From Oscillospiraceae bacterium (lineage in GTDB: Bacteria; Bacillota; Clostridia; Oscillospirales; Acutalibacteraceae): a DNA stretch of 49,654 bases. The notes under the pieces are model-generated. The model was not told where the DNA came from. It worked only from the letters and a program-made list of their open reading frames with translations, and searched no databases. Where the stretch lies: contig SVOD01000002.1 of assembly GCA_015066575.1 (NCBI GenBank), forward strand, positions 1 to 49,654. The letters run 5' to 3'. A program made the position numbers and the translations under genes. Of the stretch, positions 7,576 through 49,654 are shown piece by piece (positions within the stretch are counted from its first letter, which is position 1; each line of letters starts with the position of its first letter).

Positions 7576-8544
7576 ATGGATAAAATAGATAAAAAACTCG
7601 CGATTAAAAAAATCATCGGCGCTGTTATTTTTATTCTTCTGTTAGCGCTGGTTCTGCTTATCATTTCCTATTTCTTTGCCCCGCAAAAGGACAAAAGCAT
7701 TACAATGCAGGATGTCAAGCCCAACGGTATTTTGGCAGAAAAAGACCAAACCATTGATGTGATTTTATTCGGCGACAGTGAAGCCTACACCGCATTCTCC
7801 CCCATCCAAATGTGGCGGGATAACGGGTTTCCTTCCTTTGTGTGCGCAAGTTCCTCACAGTATGTTTCCCTTACGGAGAGTTTTGTGCACCAGGCACTTG
7901 AGCACCAAACGCCCAAAGTCGTGATTCTTGAAACCAACGCTTTTTACAGAAAAATGCGTTCGGATAATGCGTTCATAACACGCGTCGAGAATATGTTTTC
8001 CGTTTTGCAGTACCATAACCGCTGGAAAACGCTTTGCCCGCTGAAGTTGGATAAAAATGTCAACTATAATTGGAAAGACGATATGAAAGGCTATAAATAT
8101 GCCAAGCTTTCCACCAAGGGCAATAATAAAGAATATATGATTAAGACCGACGAGATTGAGCCCATCCCCGAAACAAACGCACGCTATGTGGGGCAAATTG
8201 CGGACTACTGCCGCAAAAAAGGGGTGAAGGTACTTTTGGTGAGCACACCCAGCTCCAAAAACTGGAACTACAAGCGGCATAACGCGGTTGCTGCCCTTGC
8301 CCAAAAAATCGGCACCGAGTATTTGGATTTAAACCTGCAAAAAGAAATCCAAATTGATTGGCATACCGACACGGCGGATGCCGGCGACCACTTGAATTTC
8401 CGCGGCACCAAAAAGGTCTGCGCCTTCTTGGGTGATTATTTGGCAAAAACATACCACCTCGCGGATAAGCGGAACGACCCCGCCTACCAAGAGTGGAATG
8501 ACTTAATCACAAAATATGAATATTTAACAGCAGAAAACAAATAA
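7576..8544 (+). CDS. Membrane-anchored SGNH/DltD-like extracytoplasmic protein, paralog 2
   Basis: The 322-aa product is colinear with 4685-5662 (ILFGDSEAYTAFSP; DAGDHLNFRG). The RBS is AGGAGG. The TAA stop lies inside the first hairpin of the downstream repeat element. Confidence 0.7.
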   Translation: MDKIDKKLAIKKIIGAVIFILLLALVLLIISYFFAPQKDKSITMQDVKPNGILAEKDQTIDVILFGDSEAYTAFSPIQMWRDNGFPSFVCASSSQYVSLTESFVHQALEHQTPKVVILETNAFYRKMRSDNAFITRVENMFSVLQYHNRWKTLCPLKLDKNVNYNWKDDMKGYKYAKLSTKGNNKEYMIKTDEIEPIPETNARYVGQIADYCRKKGVKVLLVSTPSSKNWNYKRHNAVAALAQKIGTEYLDLNLQKEIQIDWHTDTADAGDHLNFRGTKKVCAFLGDYLAKTYHLADKRNDPAYQEWNDLITKYEYLTAENK

Positions 8545-8838
8545 GGATTTGCGGAGCCCCTTGCGGGCTCCCAAATCCTTATTTGAATTCGGAATGCGGA
8601 ATGCGGAATGCGGAATTAGTGGTGGCAAGGCTACGCCTTGCATTTTAAAGATTTCTCGCAATCTCGAAATAATAAATCATTAGCTGTTACAAGGTTTTTT
8701 TACTTGTGAGTAAAGACTACATTTTCACAATAGAGCGAAGCGGAACAAGTGCGAATGTGTCGCCCTTTAATTCCGAATTCCGAACTCCGAATTCCGCATT
8801 GCTGTTCGCAAAACAGCGCGATAAATCCTTATTTGTCG
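8539..8838. repeat. Composite palindromic intergenic element, copy A
   Basis: Outer hairpin: aaataaggattt-gcggagccc-cttgc-gggctcc-c-aaatccttattt (8539-8584). Left arm: (AATKCGG)n at 8585-8618. Inner hairpin: gcaaggctacgccttgc (8625-8641). Conserved core: atagagcgaagcggaacaagtgcgaatgtgtcgccct (8730-8766). Right arm: the complementary (CCGMATT)n at 8767-8800. Terminal half-box: ataaatccttatttgtcg (8821-8838). Confidence 0.85.
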
Positions 8839-8851
8839 AAGGGAGAAACCT

Positions 8852-10420
8852 ATGAAAATTTTTCACGGTAACATATTAACTTTAGATGATAAGAATACCA
8901 CCGCTGCTTACCTGGTGGAAGAGGGCGGCAAAATTGCCTTTGTCGGCGATACCCTGCCTGAGAAGTACACCGCCGGTGAAATTGTGGAATTAGGCGAAAG
9001 AGCACTCATTCCCTCTTTTGCGGATACACACATTCACTTTGCTTCCTTTGCCACCTTCCATGCAGGGCTCAATGTGATGGAAGCGACAAGTAATAAGCAG
9101 ATTTTGCAAATGCTCAAATCTTATGCCGCCACGGCAAAAGAAAAACTGCTCATCACCTTCGGCGCTTCCCCCTACTCGGTGGAAGAAGGCAGGCTGGTCA
9201 ACCGCGAAGAATTGGACAGCGTTTGCCTCGATAAACCGGTCTTTATGGTCAAGTATGACGGGCACGCCTGCGTGGTCAACACAGCGCTGCTTAAAAAAAT
9301 TGAGAAGAAAGTGTGCAACCTGCGCGGCTACCACCCCGATTCGGGCGAAATGAACCAGGAAGCCTTCTTTGCCGTCAGCGACTATGTCACCAACTCTATT
9401 CCGATTTTGAGTTTGGTCAAGAATATGCAAAAAGCCGCCGACTTTATGGCAGGCAAGGGCATCGGTATGATTCACACGGTCAGCGGTGTCGGCTTTACGG
9501 CGGATATGGATGTAGATATGGAGCGCTGGTGCGGCAGAGGCTTTGAAAACGGTATGCAGCTGCGCGTATTTATGCAAACGATGACGGTTAAAAACGCGCT
9601 CAAGCGCAAGTTACCGCGCATCGGCGGTTGCTTTGCCTGCGCGCTTGACGGTTGCTTCGGCTCCGAGGATGCCGCGATGAACGAGCCCTATGAAGGCGGC
9701 GATAACAGCGGCGTACTGTATTACAGCGATGAACAGGTCATTGCCTTTTGTAAAGAAGCCAACCGCGCCGGCTTACAGATTGAAATGCACGCCATCGGCG
9801 ACAAAGCCTTTGACCAGGCAACCCGCGCGCTCAAAGCGGCGCTTGACGATTATCCGCGCGAGGACCACCGCCACGCCATTATTCACGATTGCCTGCCGAC
9901 AGAGGAAGGCATCAAAATCTGCGCCGACTACCATATTGCCATGCCGGTGCAAACCGCCTTTATTGACTGGCGCCAGGAGCCGGATGCCTATCTGGAAAAA
10001 ATTCTCGGCAAAGAGCGTTGCCGAAAACTCAACCCGATTAAAACATTTTTAGACAGCGGCATTGTTATGGGTGCAGGCTCGGATGGTCCCTGTACTTCCC
10101 CCGACCCGGTTGTGTGGCTGCACAAGGCGTGTAACCACGCTGTGCCGGAGCAGTCCATCAGTGTGTATGAGGCGCTGAGAATGTGCACCTACAACGGCTA
10201 TTGGCTGACATTTGATGAAAAAGAGCGCGGCAGTTTGGAGGTCGGCAAAATTGCCGATATGGTCATTCTCTCCGAAAACCCTTATGCTATCCCGGTCAGC
10301 GAACTAAAGCGCCTGAAAGTCGAGCAGCTCTACCTGCAAGGCAAAGAATACCGCCCCTGCCAAAAAGGCGCCGTGGGGCAGATTCTCTCCGGCATAAGAA
10401 ACAAAACGGCGAAAATTTAG
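8852..10420 (+). CDS. Amidohydrolase-family metal-dependent hydrolase (Amidohydro_3 / YtcJ-like)
   Basis: The product is 522 aa. It has an H-x-H metal motif (FADTHIHF), plus HAIGD and GSDGP blocks. RBS GGGAG lies upstream. Confidence 0.8.
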   Translation: MKIFHGNILTLDDKNTTAAYLVEEGGKIAFVGDTLPEKYTAGEIVELGERALIPSFADTHIHFASFATFHAGLNVMEATSNKQILQMLKSYAATAKEKLLITFGASPYSVEEGRLVNREELDSVCLDKPVFMVKYDGHACVVNTALLKKIEKKVCNLRGYHPDSGEMNQEAFFAVSDYVTNSIPILSLVKNMQKAADFMAGKGIGMIHTVSGVGFTADMDVDMERWCGRGFENGMQLRVFMQTMTVKNALKRKLPRIGGCFACALDGCFGSEDAAMNEPYEGGDNSGVLYYSDEQVIAFCKEANRAGLQIEMHAIGDKAFDQATRALKAALDDYPREDHRHAIIHDCLPTEEGIKICADYHIAMPVQTAFIDWRQEPDAYLEKILGKERCRKLNPIKTFLDSGIVMGAGSDGPCTSPDPVVWLHKACNHAVPEQSISVYEALRMCTYNGYWLTFDEKERGSLEVGKIADMVILSENPYAIPVSELKRLKVEQLYLQGKEYRPCQKGAVGQILSGIRNKTAKI

Positions 10421-12793: not shown

Positions 12794-12949
12794 ACTGAAC
12801 CTTGAAAACCGAACACTTTTTTGCAAGGTTTCTGTCGCTTCAATTTCATTTTTCATACTTTTAATCGGGTAAGGGCAGAGCCCTTCCGCAACTCCACTCT
12901 CCACTCTTCACTCTCCAAACTGAATAAAGAGCCTCACGGCTCTTTATTC
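12794..12949. repeat. Partial member of the intergenic element family (copy F), including the glnN terminator hairpin
   Basis: It contains actgaaccttgaaaaccgaacac (compare the copy B right arm), hairpin aagggc-aga-gccctt (12871-12885; compare 47586-47600), and tandem (CCACTCT)n at 12891-12916. The terminal hairpin gaataaagagcc-tcac-ggctctttattc (12922-12949) contains the glnN stop codon. Confidence 0.6.
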
Positions 12950-17313: not shown

Positions 17314-17374
17314 CAGATAAGAACCTGCCGCAAGCGGCAGAACCTTGGCGTTCGCAATCTGCGATTGCTCGGCT

Positions 17375-17562
17375 AAAGGATTTGTTGCGCTAATGTTCAG
17401 CAGTCGGCAGCCGGCAGTCGGCAGCCAGTCAAGGGCGGGACACCCGCACCCGATTTATATGCGTTGCGTAGCAACGCCACCATTCGCTAACTGCTAACCG
17501 CTAACCGCTGACTGCATAAATAAGGAATTGCGCGCTCTCCGAGAGCGCAATTCCTTATTTAT
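17375..17562. repeat. Composite palindromic intergenic element, copy C
   Basis: Left arm: cagcagtcggcagccggcagtcggcagccagtc (17398-17430). Core hairpin: gggcgggacacccgcacccgat (17433-17454). Inner hairpin: gcgttgc-gta-gcaacgc. Right arm: cattcgctaactgctaaccgctaaccgctgactgc (17481-17515). The ~22-bp outer hairpin ataaataaggaattgcgcgctct...agagcgcaattccttatttat (17516-17562) contains the cysK stop. Confidence 0.85.
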
Positions 17563-18461
17563 ATCAGCGATGTACTGAAATACCGCTCGGCGCGGTCCGG
17601 CAAAACGGTTGCAATCACTTTGTCTTTGCCGTACTTTTTCGCCATCTGTTTAGCGGTCCAGACATTGGCGCCGGAAGAGGTGCCTACGAGCAGCCCTTGA
17701 ATTTTCGCCAACTCGCGCGCGGTTTGAATAGCGTCCTCATCCGAAACCTCAACAATGTCGGTAATAATAGAAGTATCTAAAATATCCGGAATAAAGCCGT
17801 CGCCAATTCCCTGGATTTGGTGCAACCCCGGTTCGTGCCCTAAAAGAGCGGAAACATTCTGCGGCTCGGCAGCCACAATTTTGCAATCCGGATTTTGCTC
17901 TAACAGGTATTGCGAAACGCCCTGCAGCGTACCGCCGCTGCCGATACCGGAAACATAGATGTCGATTTTCTTGCCCAACTGCTCCACCAATTCCACGGCG
18001 GTAGTGCGGTAATGAATTTGCGGGTTTGCCGGGTTTTGAAATTGCTGCGGCACAAAGTACTCCGCAGAGCCGGCGGCAATTTCCATTGCCTTTTCCACAG
18101 AACCGGCTATGCTTTTTTGCGCATCCGTCAGCACCAACTCCGCGCCCAAAGCGCTGATGATTTTTTTGCGCTCTTCACTCATATTTTCCGGCATCACAAT
18201 GATAACGCGATAGCCTTTGCGCACGCCGCACAGCGCCAGCCCTATGCCGGTATTGCCCGAGGTCGGCTCGATAATGGTCATACCGGGGCGCAGTTTCCCG
18301 TCTTTTTCCGCCTGCTCAATCATATTGAGCGCAATGCGGTCTTTAATGCTGCCGCCGGGGTTTAAAAATTCCGCCTTGGCATAAATCTGCAAACCGGTTG
18401 TCTGCTCCAAGCTGATTAACGGCGTATTGCCGATTAAATCCACTACATTGGTATAATACAT
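17559..18461 (-). CDS. cysK: Cysteine synthase A (O-acetylserine sulfhydrylase)
   Basis: The 300-aa product has the PLP-lysine motif NPGGSIKDRIA, the substrate loop TSGNTG, and the GIGSGGT glycine loop. Confidence 0.92.
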   Translation of the reverse strand: MYYTNVVDLIGNTPLISLEQTTGLQIYAKAEFLNPGGSIKDRIALNMIEQAEKDGKLRPGMTIIEPTSGNTGIGLALCGVRKGYRVIIVMPENMSEERKKIISALGAELVLTDAQKSIAGSVEKAMEIAAGSAEYFVPQQFQNPANPQIHYRTTAVELVEQLGKKIDIYVSGIGSGGTLQGVSQYLLEQNPDCKIVAAEPQNVSALLGHEPGLHQIQGIGDGFIPDILDTSIITDIVEVSDEDAIQTARELAKIQGLLVGTSSGANVWTAKQMAKKYGKDKVIATVLPDRAERYFSTSLI

Positions 18462-18523
18462 ACTGTTTCCTTTCCTATGCTCTATTCGCTTTGTTTTTCA
18501 ATTCTAATATATTAGGTGCAAAA

Positions 18524-18647
18524 GTGAAGTTGCGCGTTACCTTGCAGTGAAGTTTTGCAAAGCAAAGTGAAGTTAAGTTTGCCTACTCTTTAGCGTAGCT
18601 AAAACTTCACTCATCTTGTGAACTTCACTGTTTTTTTACAACTTCAC
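18524..18647. repeat. Three GTGAAGTT boxes followed by three inverted AACTTCAC boxes in the cysK upstream region (copy G-like)
   Basis: GTGAAGTT is at 18524, 18547 and 18567. AACTTCAC is at 18603, 18621 and 18640. The layout is roughly mirror-symmetric around ~18588. Confidence 0.7.
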
Positions 18648-18662
18648 TTGCCGCAGGCAAAC

Positions 18663-20012
18663 TTAGTTGCGAATCAGTTTCACAACTGATTCGCAATGCG
18701 CCGTGCGCGGGAATAAATCCGCCGCACAGGCGCGCACCGCCTTGTAGCCTTTGCTCTCCAAGCGCTTTAAATCCCTTGCCAGCGTAGCCGGGTTGCAGGA
18801 AATGTAAACAATCCTCTGCGCGCCGAACGCGACAATATTTTCAATCGTTTTTTCATCGCAGCCCTTGCGCGGCGGGTCAATGACCACACAGTCGGCATGC
18901 AACCCCTTTTCTTTTAAAATACCGGTTGCCGCGGCGGCATCCGCACAGAGAAATTGCGTGTTTTTCAAATGATTGAGCGCTGCGTTTTCTTTGGCGTTTT
19001 CCACCGCTTCGGGCACAATGTCTACCCCGATTAAGCGGCAGTCGGCAGGGGCTAAACAAATGCCCACCGTGCCCGCACCGCAGTATAAATCGAGCAGGGT
19101 TTCGCCCGGTTGCAGCGCGGCATATTCCGCCGCTTTGCTGTAGAGCTTCTCGCACATATCGTGATTGACCTGATAAAAGGCAGCCGCACCGATGCGAAAG
19201 CGCTTGCCGAGCAGGCTGTCTTCTATATACGCATTGCCGAAAATGCAGCGATAGGTTTTGCCCAAAATCACATTGGTTTTTTCGGTATTTACATTGAGCA
19301 CTATGCTCTTAAGCGCCGGAAAATTCCCGCTCATAAATGCCGCAAATTCGCGCTCATACGGCAAGCCCGTGCCGTTGAGAACCAAACACAGCGCGATTTG
19401 CGCGGCACCGCTGCTACAGCGCAAAAACAGGTGGCGCACCAATCCCGTGTGCCGGTGCTCATCATAGGCGCTGATATGTTTTTGCTGCATAAACCACTGC
19501 ACTGCCCGCACTATCTCGCTAAAAATTTTCGGTTCCAGCAGGCAATCTTCGCAATGGATAACGCGGTGCGAATGCTTGGCAAAAAAACCCGCTTTGAGTA
19601 TGCCGTCTTCTGCGCGCAGCGGGTACTGCGCTTTATTGCGGTAGCGCAGGGGGGATGCACTGAGAATCTGCTCGGTTGTTAAGTTCAGCCCGCCGATGCG
19701 CCGCAGCGCATCATCCACCGCCTGCCGCTTCTCGCGCAGCTCGGCTTCGTAGCGCATATGGCGAAAATCACAGCCACCGCATTGCCGGTAAATGGCGCAA
19801 TCCGGCTCCACCCGGTCGGCAGAGGGGGTAAGAATGCAATCCACCTTGGCAAAGGCATAGTTTTTTTTGACCTTTAAAATGTGCGCCTGTATGCGGTCGC
19901 CCGCACAGGTCATCGGGGTAAAAATCACAAAGTCATCGGCTCTGCCCACACCGCTGCCGTCGGAACTTAAGGATTCGATTGTCAGTGGTATTTTTTCGTT
20001 TTTCTTCAACAT
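18663..20012 (-). CDS. rlmD: 23S rRNA (uracil-C5)-methyltransferase, RlmD/RumA family
   Basis: It has a TRAM-like N-terminus, an Fe-S cysteine cluster (CAIYRQCGGCDFRHM), the SAM motif LDLYCGAGT and the catalytic YISCNP. The ORF extends to the ATG at 20021. The ATG at 20012 has better RBS spacing (AGGA, 9 nt), so the start is uncertain by 3 codons. Confidence 0.85.
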   Translation of the reverse strand: MLKKNEKIPLTIESLSSDGSGVGRADDFVIFTPMTCAGDRIQAHILKVKKNYAFAKVDCILTPSADRVEPDCAIYRQCGGCDFRHMRYEAELREKRQAVDDALRRIGGLNLTTEQILSASPLRYRNKAQYPLRAEDGILKAGFFAKHSHRVIHCEDCLLEPKIFSEIVRAVQWFMQQKHISAYDEHRHTGLVRHLFLRCSSGAAQIALCLVLNGTGLPYEREFAAFMSGNFPALKSIVLNVNTEKTNVILGKTYRCIFGNAYIEDSLLGKRFRIGAAAFYQVNHDMCEKLYSKAAEYAALQPGETLLDLYCGAGTVGICLAPADCRLIGVDIVPEAVENAKENAALNHLKNTQFLCADAAAATGILKEKGLHADCVVIDPPRKGCDEKTIENIVAFGAQRIVYISCNPATLARDLKRLESKGYKAVRACAADLFPRTAHCESVVKLIRN

Positions 20013-20027
20013 AAATTGCATTCCTGC

Positions 20028-24021: not shown

Positions 24022-24095
24022 ATTCCTGTCTCCAATCACAGATATAGTTTATTCTAATTATATATTATACTATATATTGCGACCAATAGCAACGA

Positions 24096-24311
24096 CAAAT
24101 AAGGATTTGGCGATGCCAAATCCTTATTTGAGTGTTCAGTGTTCAGTGTTTAGTGTTCAGTAGCAAGGCTACGCCTTGCTTTTTTTGAAACCGCCCTATC
24201 AAGGGCGGTGCGTGCATAGCACGCGGTGGGTGAAACTGAAAACTGAACCCTGAAAACTGAAAACTGACAAATAAGGTTTGTCGAGCTGTCAGCTCGACAA
24301 ATCCTTATTTG
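24096..24311. repeat. Composite palindromic intergenic element, copy B
   Basis: Outer hairpin: caaataaggatttgg-cgat-gccaaatccttatttg (24096-24130). Left arm: (GTGTTCA)n at 24131-24162. Inner hairpins: agcaaggctacgccttgct + T6 (24162-24186), ccgccct-atca-agggcgg and cgtgc-ata-gcacg. Right arm: (TGAAAAC)n at 24232-24267. The second outer hairpin caaataaggtttgtcgagc-tgtc-agctcgacaaatccttatttg (24268-24311) contains the S1-gene stop codon. Confidence 0.9.
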
Positions 24312-25222
24312 AACAGTGTTTCAATCACCTTTTCGCAGCCGGGCGGGCTGTAGCGCCATACATCCATATGCGTACCTGTAAAGTAATATTCCGGCGGTGC
24401 CGGCTCCGCCGCTTCAAAACTGTCGATAATACTGAGTTTAATTTTCATTTTTTCGGGAATAATGGATTTTATGTAGACTGCTACCGCCTGCCCCGCGACA
24501 ACGCTGTCGCTATATTCGGCAAGCCCTGCCAAATTCGGCGCCAGTTCAATGAAAACGCCGTAGTTTTCCACGCTTCTGACAATGCCCTGCACCGTTTGCC
24601 CCGCCTCAAAACGCGCGGCATTTTCTTCCCAGGTGCCGAGCAGTTCGCGCAGCGAAAGGGTCAGTTTTCCTTCCGCCTTGCTTTTAAGCACACAGCGCAG
24701 CACCTGCCCTTCACAGACCCTCTGGCGCGGGTGCGCGATGCGCGAAACCGAAAGCATATCTATCGGAATAAGTGCATTGAGCCCTGCGCCGACATCCACA
24801 AAAGCGCCGAAGCGGTCTAAATGGGTTACTTTTACCTCTAACACATCGCCCGGCTGCAAAAACCGAATATACTGCTGCTTGCACTGCGCCTGTACCGCAG
24901 CGCGCGAGCAAATCGCCATCACATCCGCTCCGTCCCTGACAAACTCGCGAATGACAAACTGCACGGGTTTTCCCACTTTGGAAATAAAAGCAATATCCTT
25001 CATCTGCCCCGCTTCGGCGCCGAGTGCTCCCTCACTTTTGGGAATCATACCGTCCACAGCGCCGAGCTTGACATACAAATTCTGTTCACTGTCGCACAGA
25101 TAGCAAACACTCTCGAGCACGGTTTGATTGATGCGCGCCTCTTCCAAAGCAGCCAAAGAGCGCATTGCCTGTACATTTGCCTTTGTCTTGCATAATTTAC
25201 CCTCAAAACAAAACTCTTTCAT
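24305..25222 (-). CDS. S1 RNA-binding domain protein (multiple S1/OB repeats)
   Basis: The product is ~305 aa from the ATG at 25222, with RBS GGAGG 8 nt upstream. S1-like repeats include GDVLEVKVTHLDRFGAFVDV and GQTVQGIVRSVENYGVFIEL. Confidence 0.75.
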   Translation of the reverse strand: MKEFCFEGKLCKTKANVQAMRSLAALEEARINQTVLESVCYLCDSEQNLYVKLGAVDGMIPKSEGALGAEAGQMKDIAFISKVGKPVQFVIREFVRDGADVMAICSRAAVQAQCKQQYIRFLQPGDVLEVKVTHLDRFGAFVDVGAGLNALIPIDMLSVSRIAHPRQRVCEGQVLRCVLKSKAEGKLTLSLRELLGTWEENAARFEAGQTVQGIVRSVENYGVFIELAPNLAGLAEYSDSVVAGQAVAVYIKSIIPEKMKIKLSIIDSFEAAEPAPPEYYFTGTHMDVWRYSPPGCEKVIETLFK

Positions 25223-25287
25223 TTTTCTTTCCTCCAAAAATAATACATCCCTAAATTTTATGCCGACAGCCCCAAAATTATTAATAG

Positions 25288-44699: not shown

Positions 44700-44945
44700 C
44701 CTGTTTTTTGCATGATTTGAGCCCGCCTGCGTTAAGGGTTCTCACCGTGGCAAATGCTGCGGATACCTCGAAACCGATGCGTAAATGCCGCCGTTTTTCG
44801 TTTGCGTTGGCAAACAGCGCAGCGAAGCTGTCTCGCGGCAAAACCATATCGCATTTGCTTTTGCAAATATACCGCGCAGTGCGCAGCACTGCCTTCTCAT
44901 CGGGTGCGGTGTTCCCGCCCTATCATTGCCTTGCCAAACTGCGCG
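44700..44945. repeat. GC-rich hairpin cluster related to the intergenic element family (copy I, no tandem-repeat arms)
   Basis: It contains atcgggtgcggtgttcccgccct (44899-44921), the reverse complement of the gggcggga-cacc-gcacccgat core seen at 17433 and 47527. It also has several 5-7 bp GC hairpins with 3-4 nt loops (tgcgc-aac-gcgca, gcagtgc-tgc-gcactgc, tttgc-aaaa-gcaaa). The overlapping ORFs on both strands are non-coding in appearance. Confidence 0.5.
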
Positions 44946-46118: not shown

Positions 46119-46204
46119 CTGTTAATTTATATTAAAGTTATCAGTTTTAGCTTTTCTGCTCCTGAGTTGTGCCAACCGAAAAGCGGAAAAGTAACCAAAC
46201 CCGA

Positions 46205-46276
46205 ATAGAGCAAAGCGCAACAAGTGCGAATGTATTGCCCTCACTGATTCACTCTTACCTCTTACGTATCACTTAC
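46205..46276. repeat. Partial member of the intergenic element family (copy H)
   Basis: The core atagagcaaagcgcaacaagtgcgaatgtattgccct (46205-46241) is ~85% identical by eye to 8730-8766. As in copy A, a short-unit repeat arm follows it (cactgattcactcttacctcttacgtatcacttac). Confidence 0.65.
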
Positions 46277-47371: not shown

Positions 47372-47442
47372 ACAAATTACCTCTGTAATAGAATAAGTAA
47401 ACAACATTATACACTGCCGCGCAGAAAAAATCAACACCTCGA

Positions 47443-47687
47443 CAAATAAGGTTTGTCGAGGTCTGCGACCTCGCAAATTCTTATTTGAAGCCTATTAGCA
47501 GTTAGCATATTGGCATATTAGCGAATGGGCGGGACACCCGCACCCGATTATATTGTTCCTACGCCGCTTGCGGCTTATAATGGGTAAGGGCGGAGCCCTT
47601 CCTTTCGCTAACGGCTAATTTGCTAATTTGCTAACCGCTGACAAATAAGGGTTTGTCGAGCGAACAGCTCGCCAAATCCTTATTTGT
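47443..47687. repeat. Composite palindromic intergenic element, copy D
   Basis: Outer hairpin: caaataaggtttgtcgaggtc-tgc-gacctcgcaaattcttatttg (47443-47487). Left arm: 47488-47526. Core: gggcgggacacccgcacccgat (47527-47548). Inner hairpins: gccgc-ttg-cggc and aagggc-gga-gccctt. Right arm: tcgctaacggctaatttgctaatttgctaaccgctg (47605-47640). Second outer hairpin: acaaataagggtttgtcgagc-gaac-agctcgccaaatccttatttgt (47641-47687). Confidence 0.9.
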
Positions 47688-47688
47688 A

Positions 47689-47717
47689 TTGCTTTTTTTC
47701 CCGCTTTAGTATATAAT
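47689..47717 (+). promoter_or_regulatory. Candidate prfB promoter
   Basis: TTGCTT (47689-47694), 17 nt, TATAAT (47712-47717). Confidence 0.5.
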
Positions 47718-49575: not shown

Positions 49576-49578
49576 CGA

Positions 49579-49654
49579 CAAATAAGGATTTGTCGAGGTC
49601 TACGACCTCGCAAATTCTTATTTGAAGCCTATTAGCAGTTAGCATATTGGCATA
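49579..49654. repeat. Composite palindromic intergenic element, copy E (truncated by window end)
   Basis: The 76 nt differ from 47443-47517 by one 1-nt indel (aaggAtttg vs aaggtttg) and one substitution (gtctAcgac vs gtctGcgac). Confidence 0.9.

Follow-up and report, generated by a model that had tools for sequence, protein, structure and literature searches.

The gene at 7576-8544 in a 49,654-nt stretch of an Oscillospiraceae genome (contig SVOD01000002.1, here called in its entirety the window) is followed by a composite palindrome, copy A, that takes up the spacer to the next gene, and the question raised by this locus is what such an element is and how it came to lie there. An initial annotation of the window had proposed at least nine full or partial copies, with terminators, mRNA-level elements and mobile DNA resembling MITEs (miniature inverted-repeat transposable elements) among the candidate roles. 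We find that copy A belongs to a real, abundant and previously uncatalogued family of hairpin-ended, heptamer-armed elements. On balance we consider that the family is probably selfish, non-autonomous foldback DNA, restricted to one genus and similar to the repetitive extragenic palindromes (REP), BIMEs and REPINs; among the roles first proposed, MITE-like mobile DNA is the best fit.

A full element consists of five parts in series: an outer hairpin, tandem heptamers, one to three small GC hairpins or cores, inverted heptamers and an inverted outer hairpin. The outer hairpin is built from two half-box palindromes flanking one of a few GC-rich apical hairpins. Each half-box is a small palindrome, AAAT-N4-ATTT, which in its box-A form reads CGACAAAT-AAGG-ATTTGTCG; the sequence ATTTGTCG/CGACAAAT occurs up to four times per outer hairpin, and the set is complete where the apical module starts with GTCG. 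In the box-A hairpin, the flank (C)GAC pairs with the GTC(G) of the opposite side. The polarity of the apical module is consistent between the inverted ends, and hairpin, arm and core together form terminal inverted repeats. The elements are non-coding, 150-300 bp long, and were also seen nested, one within another. In the predicted folds, a single long stem formed by the arms, with the small GC hairpins at its tip, stands next to the two outer hairpins (z-scores of whole-element folds are given in Table 1). The architecture initially described for full copies is seen in copies A, B, C, D and E.

The draft genome containing the window (G000, in which the window lies on contig C5) comprises 2.21 Mb in 181 contigs, with 46.8% G+C and 83% completeness. 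The outer box AAATAAGGATTTG was found 15 times in the window at up to two mismatches, compared with 2.6 expected, and its predicted enrichment in the rest of the genome was borne out, with 262 matches at up to one mismatch, 201 of them exact. Complete outer hairpins number 106 and are 31-47 nt long. Family sequence, defined as sequence present in at least four other intergenic regions, is found in 391 of the 1,271 intergenic regions (31%), where it amounts to 44 kb, or ~2% of the genome and 17% of its intergenic DNA, and the elements are dispersed around the genome. True copy numbers must be higher, since 69% of contig edges end in family repeats. Contigs also break within copy A, which is confirmed by two independent metagenome assemblies; copies carried by independent assemblies indicate that the elements are not assembly artefacts. 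As a separate observation on this draft, C99:1-17985 and C139:11-17995 have 18 kb in common at 100% identity, which reflects either redundancy in the metagenome-assembled genome (MAG) or a very recent large duplication.

The heptamer arms dominate the tandem repeats of this genome: 352 arrays of period 7 were found, whereas no other period between 1 and 20 gave more than 37, and 276 of the 352 are intergenic, with 63 distinct units. The initial annotation had taken the arm unit to be specific to each copy. This was refuted when all hairpins were listed with their flanks, revealing a few combinations of arm and core, each used many times over. Approximately nine subfamilies can be distinguished (M1, AATGCGG; M2, GTGTTCA; M3/M4, TTAGC-type; M5, GGAGTGT; M6, GAATAGT; M7, GAATTTT; M8, GCAGYCG; and M9), and a unit type can have as many as 16 or more full copies that are nearly identical. 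The claim that left and right arms are complementary held for most of the ~40 complete elements, which have inverted arms of the same type, but ~6 are chimeras with non-complementary arms. Among ten subfamily representatives, the left arm scored a mean of 17.8 against the reverse complement of the right arm within the element and 7.8 between subfamilies. A fixed base in every unit sets the two arms apart, generating periodic mismatches (G.A in two subfamilies), and units are gained or lost independently on each side, so that their numbers change one-sidedly. We therefore take the arms of each subfamily to owe their complementarity to an inverted duplication in its master copy, from which it was inherited; the pattern does not look like ongoing compensatory evolution. 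One spacer in G000 (C107:6787-6982) contains serial heptamer arrays around a single GC hairpin, with no outer hairpin: ~13 units of AATGCGG/AATTCGG are followed by TTCTACT, TTTAGCA and CTCCACT, and the orthologous spacer in species G005 is 28 nt long.

Compensatory covariation had been suspected in the arms, where the pattern reflects a few subfamilies, but it was found in the outer hairpin. Among 182 hairpins from four species, we observed 17 Watson-Crick compensated double changes of 11 kinds and no non-complementary double change, together with 30 one-sided mismatches and 20 one-sided G.T pairs. By pair counting, the 17 compensated cells compare with 2.6 +/- 1.4 in shuffles, none of 500 of which reached this value. 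A looser hairpin definition (up to four mismatches per half) drew in generic terminators and was dropped. One orthologous copy carries a stem that varies at four positions, all of them compensated (ACATAAGAAATCG/CGATTTCTTATGT).

In two sister species (G001 and G006), the place of box-A is taken by a second outer hairpin, box-B (AAATTCTAATTT...AAATTAGAATTT), and the inner cores and heptamer arms are common to elements of both types. Box-A and box-B both have the AAAT-N4-ATTT half-box, an unpaired base at position 14 that is usually a pyrimidine, and homologous apical loops (CTTGC, TCC and GTA/TAC); N4 and the apical sequences are wholly different. When 24 hairpins of both types were aligned over 44 nt, 99.1% of cells were paired and 11 of 19 pairs were altered on both sides. 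The covariation score was 0.54, compared with 0.19 in shuffles, and the signal collapsed when the partner strand was slid; because the search patterns demanded both half-boxes, only the apical stems are free of ascertainment here. Pairing under constraint is formally demonstrated for the outer hairpin, and not for the arms.

The family is confined to six of the eight species of one uncultured gut Clostridia genus. Box-A hairpins number 66 in G000, 41 in G007, 31 in G005 and 15 in G003, with none in G001, G006, G002 or G004. Box-B hairpins number 110 in G001, 22 in G006, two in G007 and one in G003, with none in G005, G002 or G004 and no exact copy in G000, which has three or four degenerate ones. 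The core AGAGCGWAGCGGAAC occurs in all six species (G000, 34; G007, 23; G005, 28; G003, 8; G001, 88; G006, 36) and in neither G002 nor G004. None of 33 further genera from the family and order contained box-A, box-B or core AGAGCGWAGCGGAAC, save for one match to the core, in a single genome of the same order. Outside the genus, the box 13-mer occurs only in isolated, ordinary terminator stems of unrelated taxa, and a terminator origin of the box is therefore conceivable; other matches there belong to a short, unrelated hairpin family without arms. Plasmid and phage collections contained no match to the family, leading us to reject a plasmid or phage origin, and Rfam returned a cobalamin riboswitch as its only match in the window, with no credible match at E<=1 on copies A and D. 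The initial view that this is not a described element is upheld by these searches.

Comparison of copies and of orthologous sites indicates how the family changes over time. Median identity among the 16 full M2 copies is 99.2%, and one copy in the closest species is 100% identical while the genes are only 85-90% identical. At orthologous sites, a full element in one species was seen to correspond to a solo hairpin in another (L032/C104, L049/C56), to a half-box footprint that is read into the gene (C73/L052) or to a clean empty site without duplication (L043/C143), and inverted interiors, other subfamilies and other apical modules were also observed. Sites occupied in both species, in the relative only and in G000 only were all found, in a sample biased to sites occupied in relatives. 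Thus, of the two signs of mobility that comparison of orthologous regions had been expected to reveal, presence/absence polymorphism was found between species, but neither the borders of complete elements nor the pairs of empty and filled sites showed a target-site duplication. A ~230-bp insertion at C118:14112-14342 of G000, within an M2-like element, is missing from the orthologous copy in G007 and is bounded by a TTGCCC direct repeat, possibly the target duplication made by some other small mobile element.

Family elements favour gene 3′ ends, with 36% of intergenic regions occupied between convergent genes, 26% between tandem genes and 12% between divergent genes, and in many cases their termini supply the stop codon of the neighbouring gene. 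Twenty-five hairpin-gene junctions, involving 24 distinct genes, end on the TAA within AAATAAGG; they represent 52% of the 48 pairs in which a hairpin lies within 150 nt of a gene 3′ end. The ending GAC AAA TAA terminates 13 of the 24 stop-donated genes, and box-B likewise donates a stop as AAA TTC TAA. In the window, the stop codon of gene 7576-8544 is the TAA at 8542-8544, within the copy A box, and those of genes 24305-25237 (-) and 17559-18461 (-) lie within the boxes of copies B and C, respectively. Comparison with element-free orthologues showed that one protein gained the residues DK ahead of its stop (...SCF to ...SCFDK) and that another was shortened by seven residues at a CACAAA microhomology, while two genes have native ends in element-free species that are already similar to the element terminus (GATAAATAA, GAAAAGTAA). 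The supply of stop codons to flanking genes by REP termini is known (PMC3733652).

Copy A replaces the entire native spacer, including an apparent conserved promoter and, in G006, a terminator. In species without this copy (G003 and G006; L090 and L091), a promoter-like sequence, atatgcTACAAT, is conserved before the downstream amidohydrolase-like gene. In G000, G007 and G005, the element reaches the ribosome-binding site (window 8840-8852) and atatgcTACAAT is gone, so that the amidohydrolase-like gene must be transcribed either through the element or from a promoter within it.

From these comparisons we infer how a family of this kind may spread. Folded as hairpin DNA, the elements would be copied to new sites or converted between sites, with the structure of the terminal hairpin, not its sequence, as the likely target of recognition. 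Insertion would prefer A-rich gene ends similar to the element's own terminus, (G)ACAAATAA. Recombination at the hairpins would exchange modules, and replication slippage would lengthen or shorten the heptamer arms. Effects on the host, such as 3′ untranslated structure, new stop codons and displaced promoters, would be a by-product.

Several observations weigh against selfish mobile DNA of this kind. In look-ups by exact protein match, two of which gave no hit, copy C is invariant in six independent metagenome assemblies, and no movement was seen within the species; apart from the copy E site, which differs in one sample, copies are stable at this level. The near-identity of copies and the swapping of modules could result from gene conversion rather than transposition. 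The loop census described below, which bears on the folded form, counts copies and not independent events. No mobilising enzyme was found in G000, and across the eight species the distribution of Y1 genes (PF01797 search of the genus) does not follow the presence of elements. A RAYT-like gene considered as the mobiliser was rejected: it lies in a sister species and is flanked by other inverted repeats (GTAGGGGACGGTTCTTT). Finally, the random orientation of elements does not fit the lagging-strand-biased insertion of IS200/IS605-style systems.

Other searches for an enzyme gave the following results. The two IS200-like Y1 transposase copies of G000 (PF01797 search) were rejected as mobilisers, having no box at their flanks and unrelated ends, and comparison of the genome with itself by BLAST recovered the IS200-like sequence, with ends unlike the box, as the only repeat of at least 450 bp with transposon features; this is a weak negative for an autonomous partner, because MAGs frequently lack insertion sequences. 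The RAYT-like gene of G007 (L102:1114-1917, 267 aa) has no homologue in the G000 assembly, which at 83% completeness does not prove absence. Its flanking GTAGGGGACGGTTCTTT resembles a G000 motif, GGGGACGGTTC, which is a conserved loop between variable stems and defines a separate hairpin family of 18 copies at up to two mismatches (sites include C21:3547, C21:3569, C21:7378, C75:15825, C4:5329 and C40:31430). Another REP-like family in G000 consists of CTACCCCTCTGTC, a hairpin and ...GAAGCGGTTAAGATG, has a CTAC (GTAG) end and is often nested in heptamer-armed elements (C48:2102, C48:10709, C2:1278, C1:9483 and C65:3960-4150).

The strongest competitor to selfish foldback DNA dispenses with transposition: heptamers would arise by polymerase slippage, repair within hairpins would maintain perfect palindromes, and modules would spread solely through homologous recombination or gene conversion between pre-existing landing-pad hairpins. 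Heptamers are over-represented in bacteria, with slippage proposed as the cause (PMC4692102), and the variable unit numbers, the module chimeras, the lack of both a target duplication and a transposase, and the sites at which a solo hairpin and a full element have hairpin halves in common are all consistent with this scheme. However, it leaves unexplained how hairpins arrived at previously empty sites (L043 compared with C143) and how 24 genes became fused in frame to the same terminus, and the homology arms available for recombination are only 13-45 nt long. We consider this explanation unlikely.

Whether the elements act as DNA or as RNA bears on a second competitor, in which they are RNA-level cis elements, such as mRNA 3′-end stabilisers, attenuators or insulators, kept by selection on the RNA fold. 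Their enrichment after gene 3′ ends, their very stable predicted folds and the covariation of the outer hairpin would suit such a role, and copy A, which covers everything between one gene's stop codon and the ribosome-binding site of the gene that follows, would have to be transcribed for that second gene to be expressed. Against it, the orientation of elements relative to flanking genes is random, with no strand bias, and the loops are of a DNA type. Among perfect intergenic hairpins, 65% of those in the family have triloops, compared with 41% of others; C-GNA-G makes up 34% of family triloops and 14% of those in other intergenic hairpins, and GNRA/UNCG only 2% of family tetraloops compared with 20% elsewhere. 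The conserved core includes GCGAAGC or GCGTAGC, and d(GCGNAGC) mini-hairpins, like d(GNA) loops with a closing C-G pair, are known for exceptional stability in DNA (PMC13037366, PMC3201870). The DNA-type loops and random orientation thus favour hairpin or cruciform DNA over RNA, in a manner that is suggestive only, and they weaken the mRNA-level role proposed initially. The terminator role of the initial annotation is poorly supported: the outer hairpin has no U-tract, its T-rich segment falling within the stem, a terminator consensus scan called none at copy A, and many copies have a canonical terminator immediately before them or one on either side. An RNA function is also difficult to reconcile with the lack of the family in two species of the genus and in every other genus sampled, with differences in occupancy and subfamily at orthologous sites, with copies such as D that lie between divergent promoters, and with the one-sided loss of arm units. 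Taken together, we regard an RNA-level explanation as improbable, to much the same degree as one without transposition.

A third and distinctly less probable possibility, drawn by analogy with integron attC sites and REP hairpins, is that the outer hairpins serve as structure-specific recombination sites used as folded single-stranded DNA. A putative enzyme would then insert, exchange and delete non-coding, heptamer-armed cassettes at the outer hairpins; box-A and box-B might be two co-evolving specificities of site and enzyme, and the sites may be aimed at stop-proximal sequence resembling (G)ACAAATAA. Least likely of all, and in our view very doubtful, are sites of chromosome architecture, at which the half-box palindromes would bind a host protein for nucleoid organisation or supercoiling control, as BIMEs do with gyrase and IHF: the repetition of ATTTGTCG/CGACAAAT within outer hairpins, the AAAT-N4-ATTT frame retained in both hairpin families and the dispersal of elements around the genome would suit this idea, whereas a sequence-specific duplex binder would not tolerate the compensated changes or the wholly different N4 and apical sequences of box-A and box-B, and close relatives are entirely without elements.

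Returning to selfish foldback DNA, the closest known systems are the REP, BIME and REPIN repeats of Proteobacteria, which are mobilised by RAYT Y1 enzymes. Like them, the family consists of short, high-copy extragenic palindromes in mosaics with other conserved motifs, and of inverted doublets that fold into larger hairpins, its end hairpins being inverted and its arms paired. The 106 outer hairpins in 2.2 Mb correspond to the size given for REP/REPIN sequences (high-copy imperfect palindromes of 20-45 nt). Both share a preference for convergent and tandem intergenic regions and termini that donate stop codons (PMC3733652), and both comprise several families with lineage-specific expansion (PMC3116915). 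In contrast to REP/REPIN sequences, the family has no GTAG or CGTC tag, its GAC/GTC flanks pairing instead, and no RAYT flanked by family repeats was found in the 83% complete assembly. It also differs in its host, a member of the Firmicutes (Clostridia), in an outer hairpin that is a palindrome of two smaller palindromes, and in the long inverted heptamer arms inside. We class the family as an undescribed variant of the REP/BIME/REPIN kind, although it has no such tag and no associated RAYT was found. Its distinctive features are the inverted heptamer arms, the palindrome-of-palindromes terminal hairpin and the two structure-equivalent hairpin families in sister species.

Other systems resemble it in part. 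Pneumococcal BOX elements, boxA-boxB(n)-boxC, are modular, with a variable number of internal repeats and complementary end modules that form a stem-loop; the internal repeat of BOX is 45 bp instead of 7 bp, there are no two inverted arms, and the sequences are unrelated. The STRR heptamer repeats of cyanobacteria are comparable period-7 intergenic repeats. The heptamer repeats of Xanthomonas (GGGAATC arrays) likewise show a period-7 excess, are intergenic, vary in unit number and sequence between close relatives and occasionally form inverted stem-loop pairs (PMC4692102). In the family, unlike these heptamer repeats, at least 63 units occur in bounded elements with terminal hairpins and GC cores, and they are not G-quadruplex-forming. 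Like MITEs, and like eukaryotic foldback elements, whose terminal inverted repeats are made of tandem subrepeats, the elements of the family are non-coding, measure 150-300 bp and are bounded by long terminal inverted repeats; they exist in multiple copies that are nearly identical, are present at a site in one species and absent in another, and can be nested. It differs from MITEs in having no target-site duplication and no autonomous partner with matching ends that we could find, and in ends that are covarying hairpins and not sequence-conserved transposase binding sites. Elements derived from IS200/IS605 (PATE-like) are similar in their hairpin ends and lack of duplication; the ends of the family are unlike those of the resident IS200, its elements show no strand bias, and its common GAC flank is part of the palindrome.

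Within the window, membership was mapped as intergenic sequence that recurs elsewhere in the genome (Table 1). Of the nine copies proposed initially, A, B, C, D and E are solid and F and H are fragments, but the G-like region (18524-18647) and I (44700-44945) are not members: the former occurs only once in the genome and is a structure of its own, made of GTGAAGTT repeats, and the latter contains at most one degenerate core. Copy A has an AT-rich centre between its GC hairpin gcaaggctacgccttgc and core atagagcgaagcggaac. Copy F is without a canonical outer box, and the 12 matches to copy H elsewhere in the genome are all to the M1 core. Copy E directly follows an intrinsic terminator; a second assembly breaks at the identical base, and in a third sample (L132) the modules at this site are arranged differently.

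Table 1. Positions of family copies and their parts in the window
Feature	Position	Strand	Details
Copy A, full, subfamily M1	8536..8840	.	11 full M1 copies in genome; RNA fold z -8.1
Copy A outer hairpin	8539-8584		AAATAAGGATTTG-CGGAGCCCCTTGCGGGCTCC-CAAATCCTTATTT
Copy A left arm	8585-8616		AATGCGG/AATTCGG
Copy A GC hairpin	8625-8641		gcaaggctacgccttgc
Copy A core	8730-8765		atagagcgaagcggaac..gtcgccc
Copy A inverted arm	8769-8800		CCGAATT-type units
Copy A terminal hairpin and half-box	8801-8838		
Copy F, partial	12865..12922	.	core aatcgggtaagggcagagccctt and one CTCCACT-type heptamer arm; 22 matches elsewhere in genome
Copy F period-7 array	12892-12917		
Copy C, subfamily M8	17338..17560	.	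left end degenerate
Copy C arm	17400-17426		GCAGYCG
Copy C core	17433-17454		gggcgggacacccgcacccgat
Copy C hairpin	17461-17477		gcgttgcgtagcaacgc
Copy C inverted arm	17485-17517		
Copy C outer hairpin	17518-17560		
Copy B, full, subfamily M2	24093..24313	.	DNA fold z -16.9
Copy B short outer hairpin	24097-24129		
Copy B arm	24131-24161		GTGTTCA
Copy B three GC hairpins	24163-24179, 24191-24208, 24210-24224		
Copy B inverted arm	24233-24267		
Copy B second outer hairpin	24268-24311		
Copy H, 30-nt remnant	46204..46233	.	M1-type core atagagcaaagcgcaacaagtgcgaatgt, then decayed arm
Copy D, full, subfamilies M3/M4	47440..47689	.	RNA fold z -9.7; 6 full copies
Copy D outer hairpin	47443-47487		followed by TTAGC-type arm
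Copy D core	47527-47548		gggcgggacacccgcacccgat
Copy D hairpin	47586-47600		aagggcggagccctt, followed by inverted arm
Copy D second outer hairpin	47643-47685		
Copy E, left end of M3 element	49576..49654	.	CGAC, outer hairpin 49580-49623, arm start; ended by contig end

The G-like region contains, at 18490-18650 between genes 17559-18461 and 18663-20021, three to four direct GTGAAGTT units followed by inverted AACTTCAC units, possibly an array of operator or regulator sites, and at this position the closest species carries an insertion of 2.1 kb that bears genes. Elsewhere in the genome, the open reading frame at C67:1559-2920 carries a (CA)n tract of ~22 units in its last 240 nt, a possible slippage-prone, phase-variable site.

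Study of REP-like repeats is well advanced for Proteobacteria but has hardly touched Clostridia, and the family brings them into a new phylum. It also links the unexplained excess of heptamer repeats in bacteria to bounded, hairpin-ended elements. For its hosts, the family rewrites gene ends, adding or removing C-terminal residues, supplying stop codons and replacing native terminator and promoter regions. In practical terms, its repeats break metagenome assemblies and are possible markers of strain or species in this gut lineage. Box-A and box-B, which have the same structure and different sequences, provide a test of whether it is the structure of the hairpin or its sequence that is recognised. 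If the outer hairpins did prove to be recombination sites analogous to attC, the family would represent a new kind of hairpin-guided mobile system in Firmicutes.

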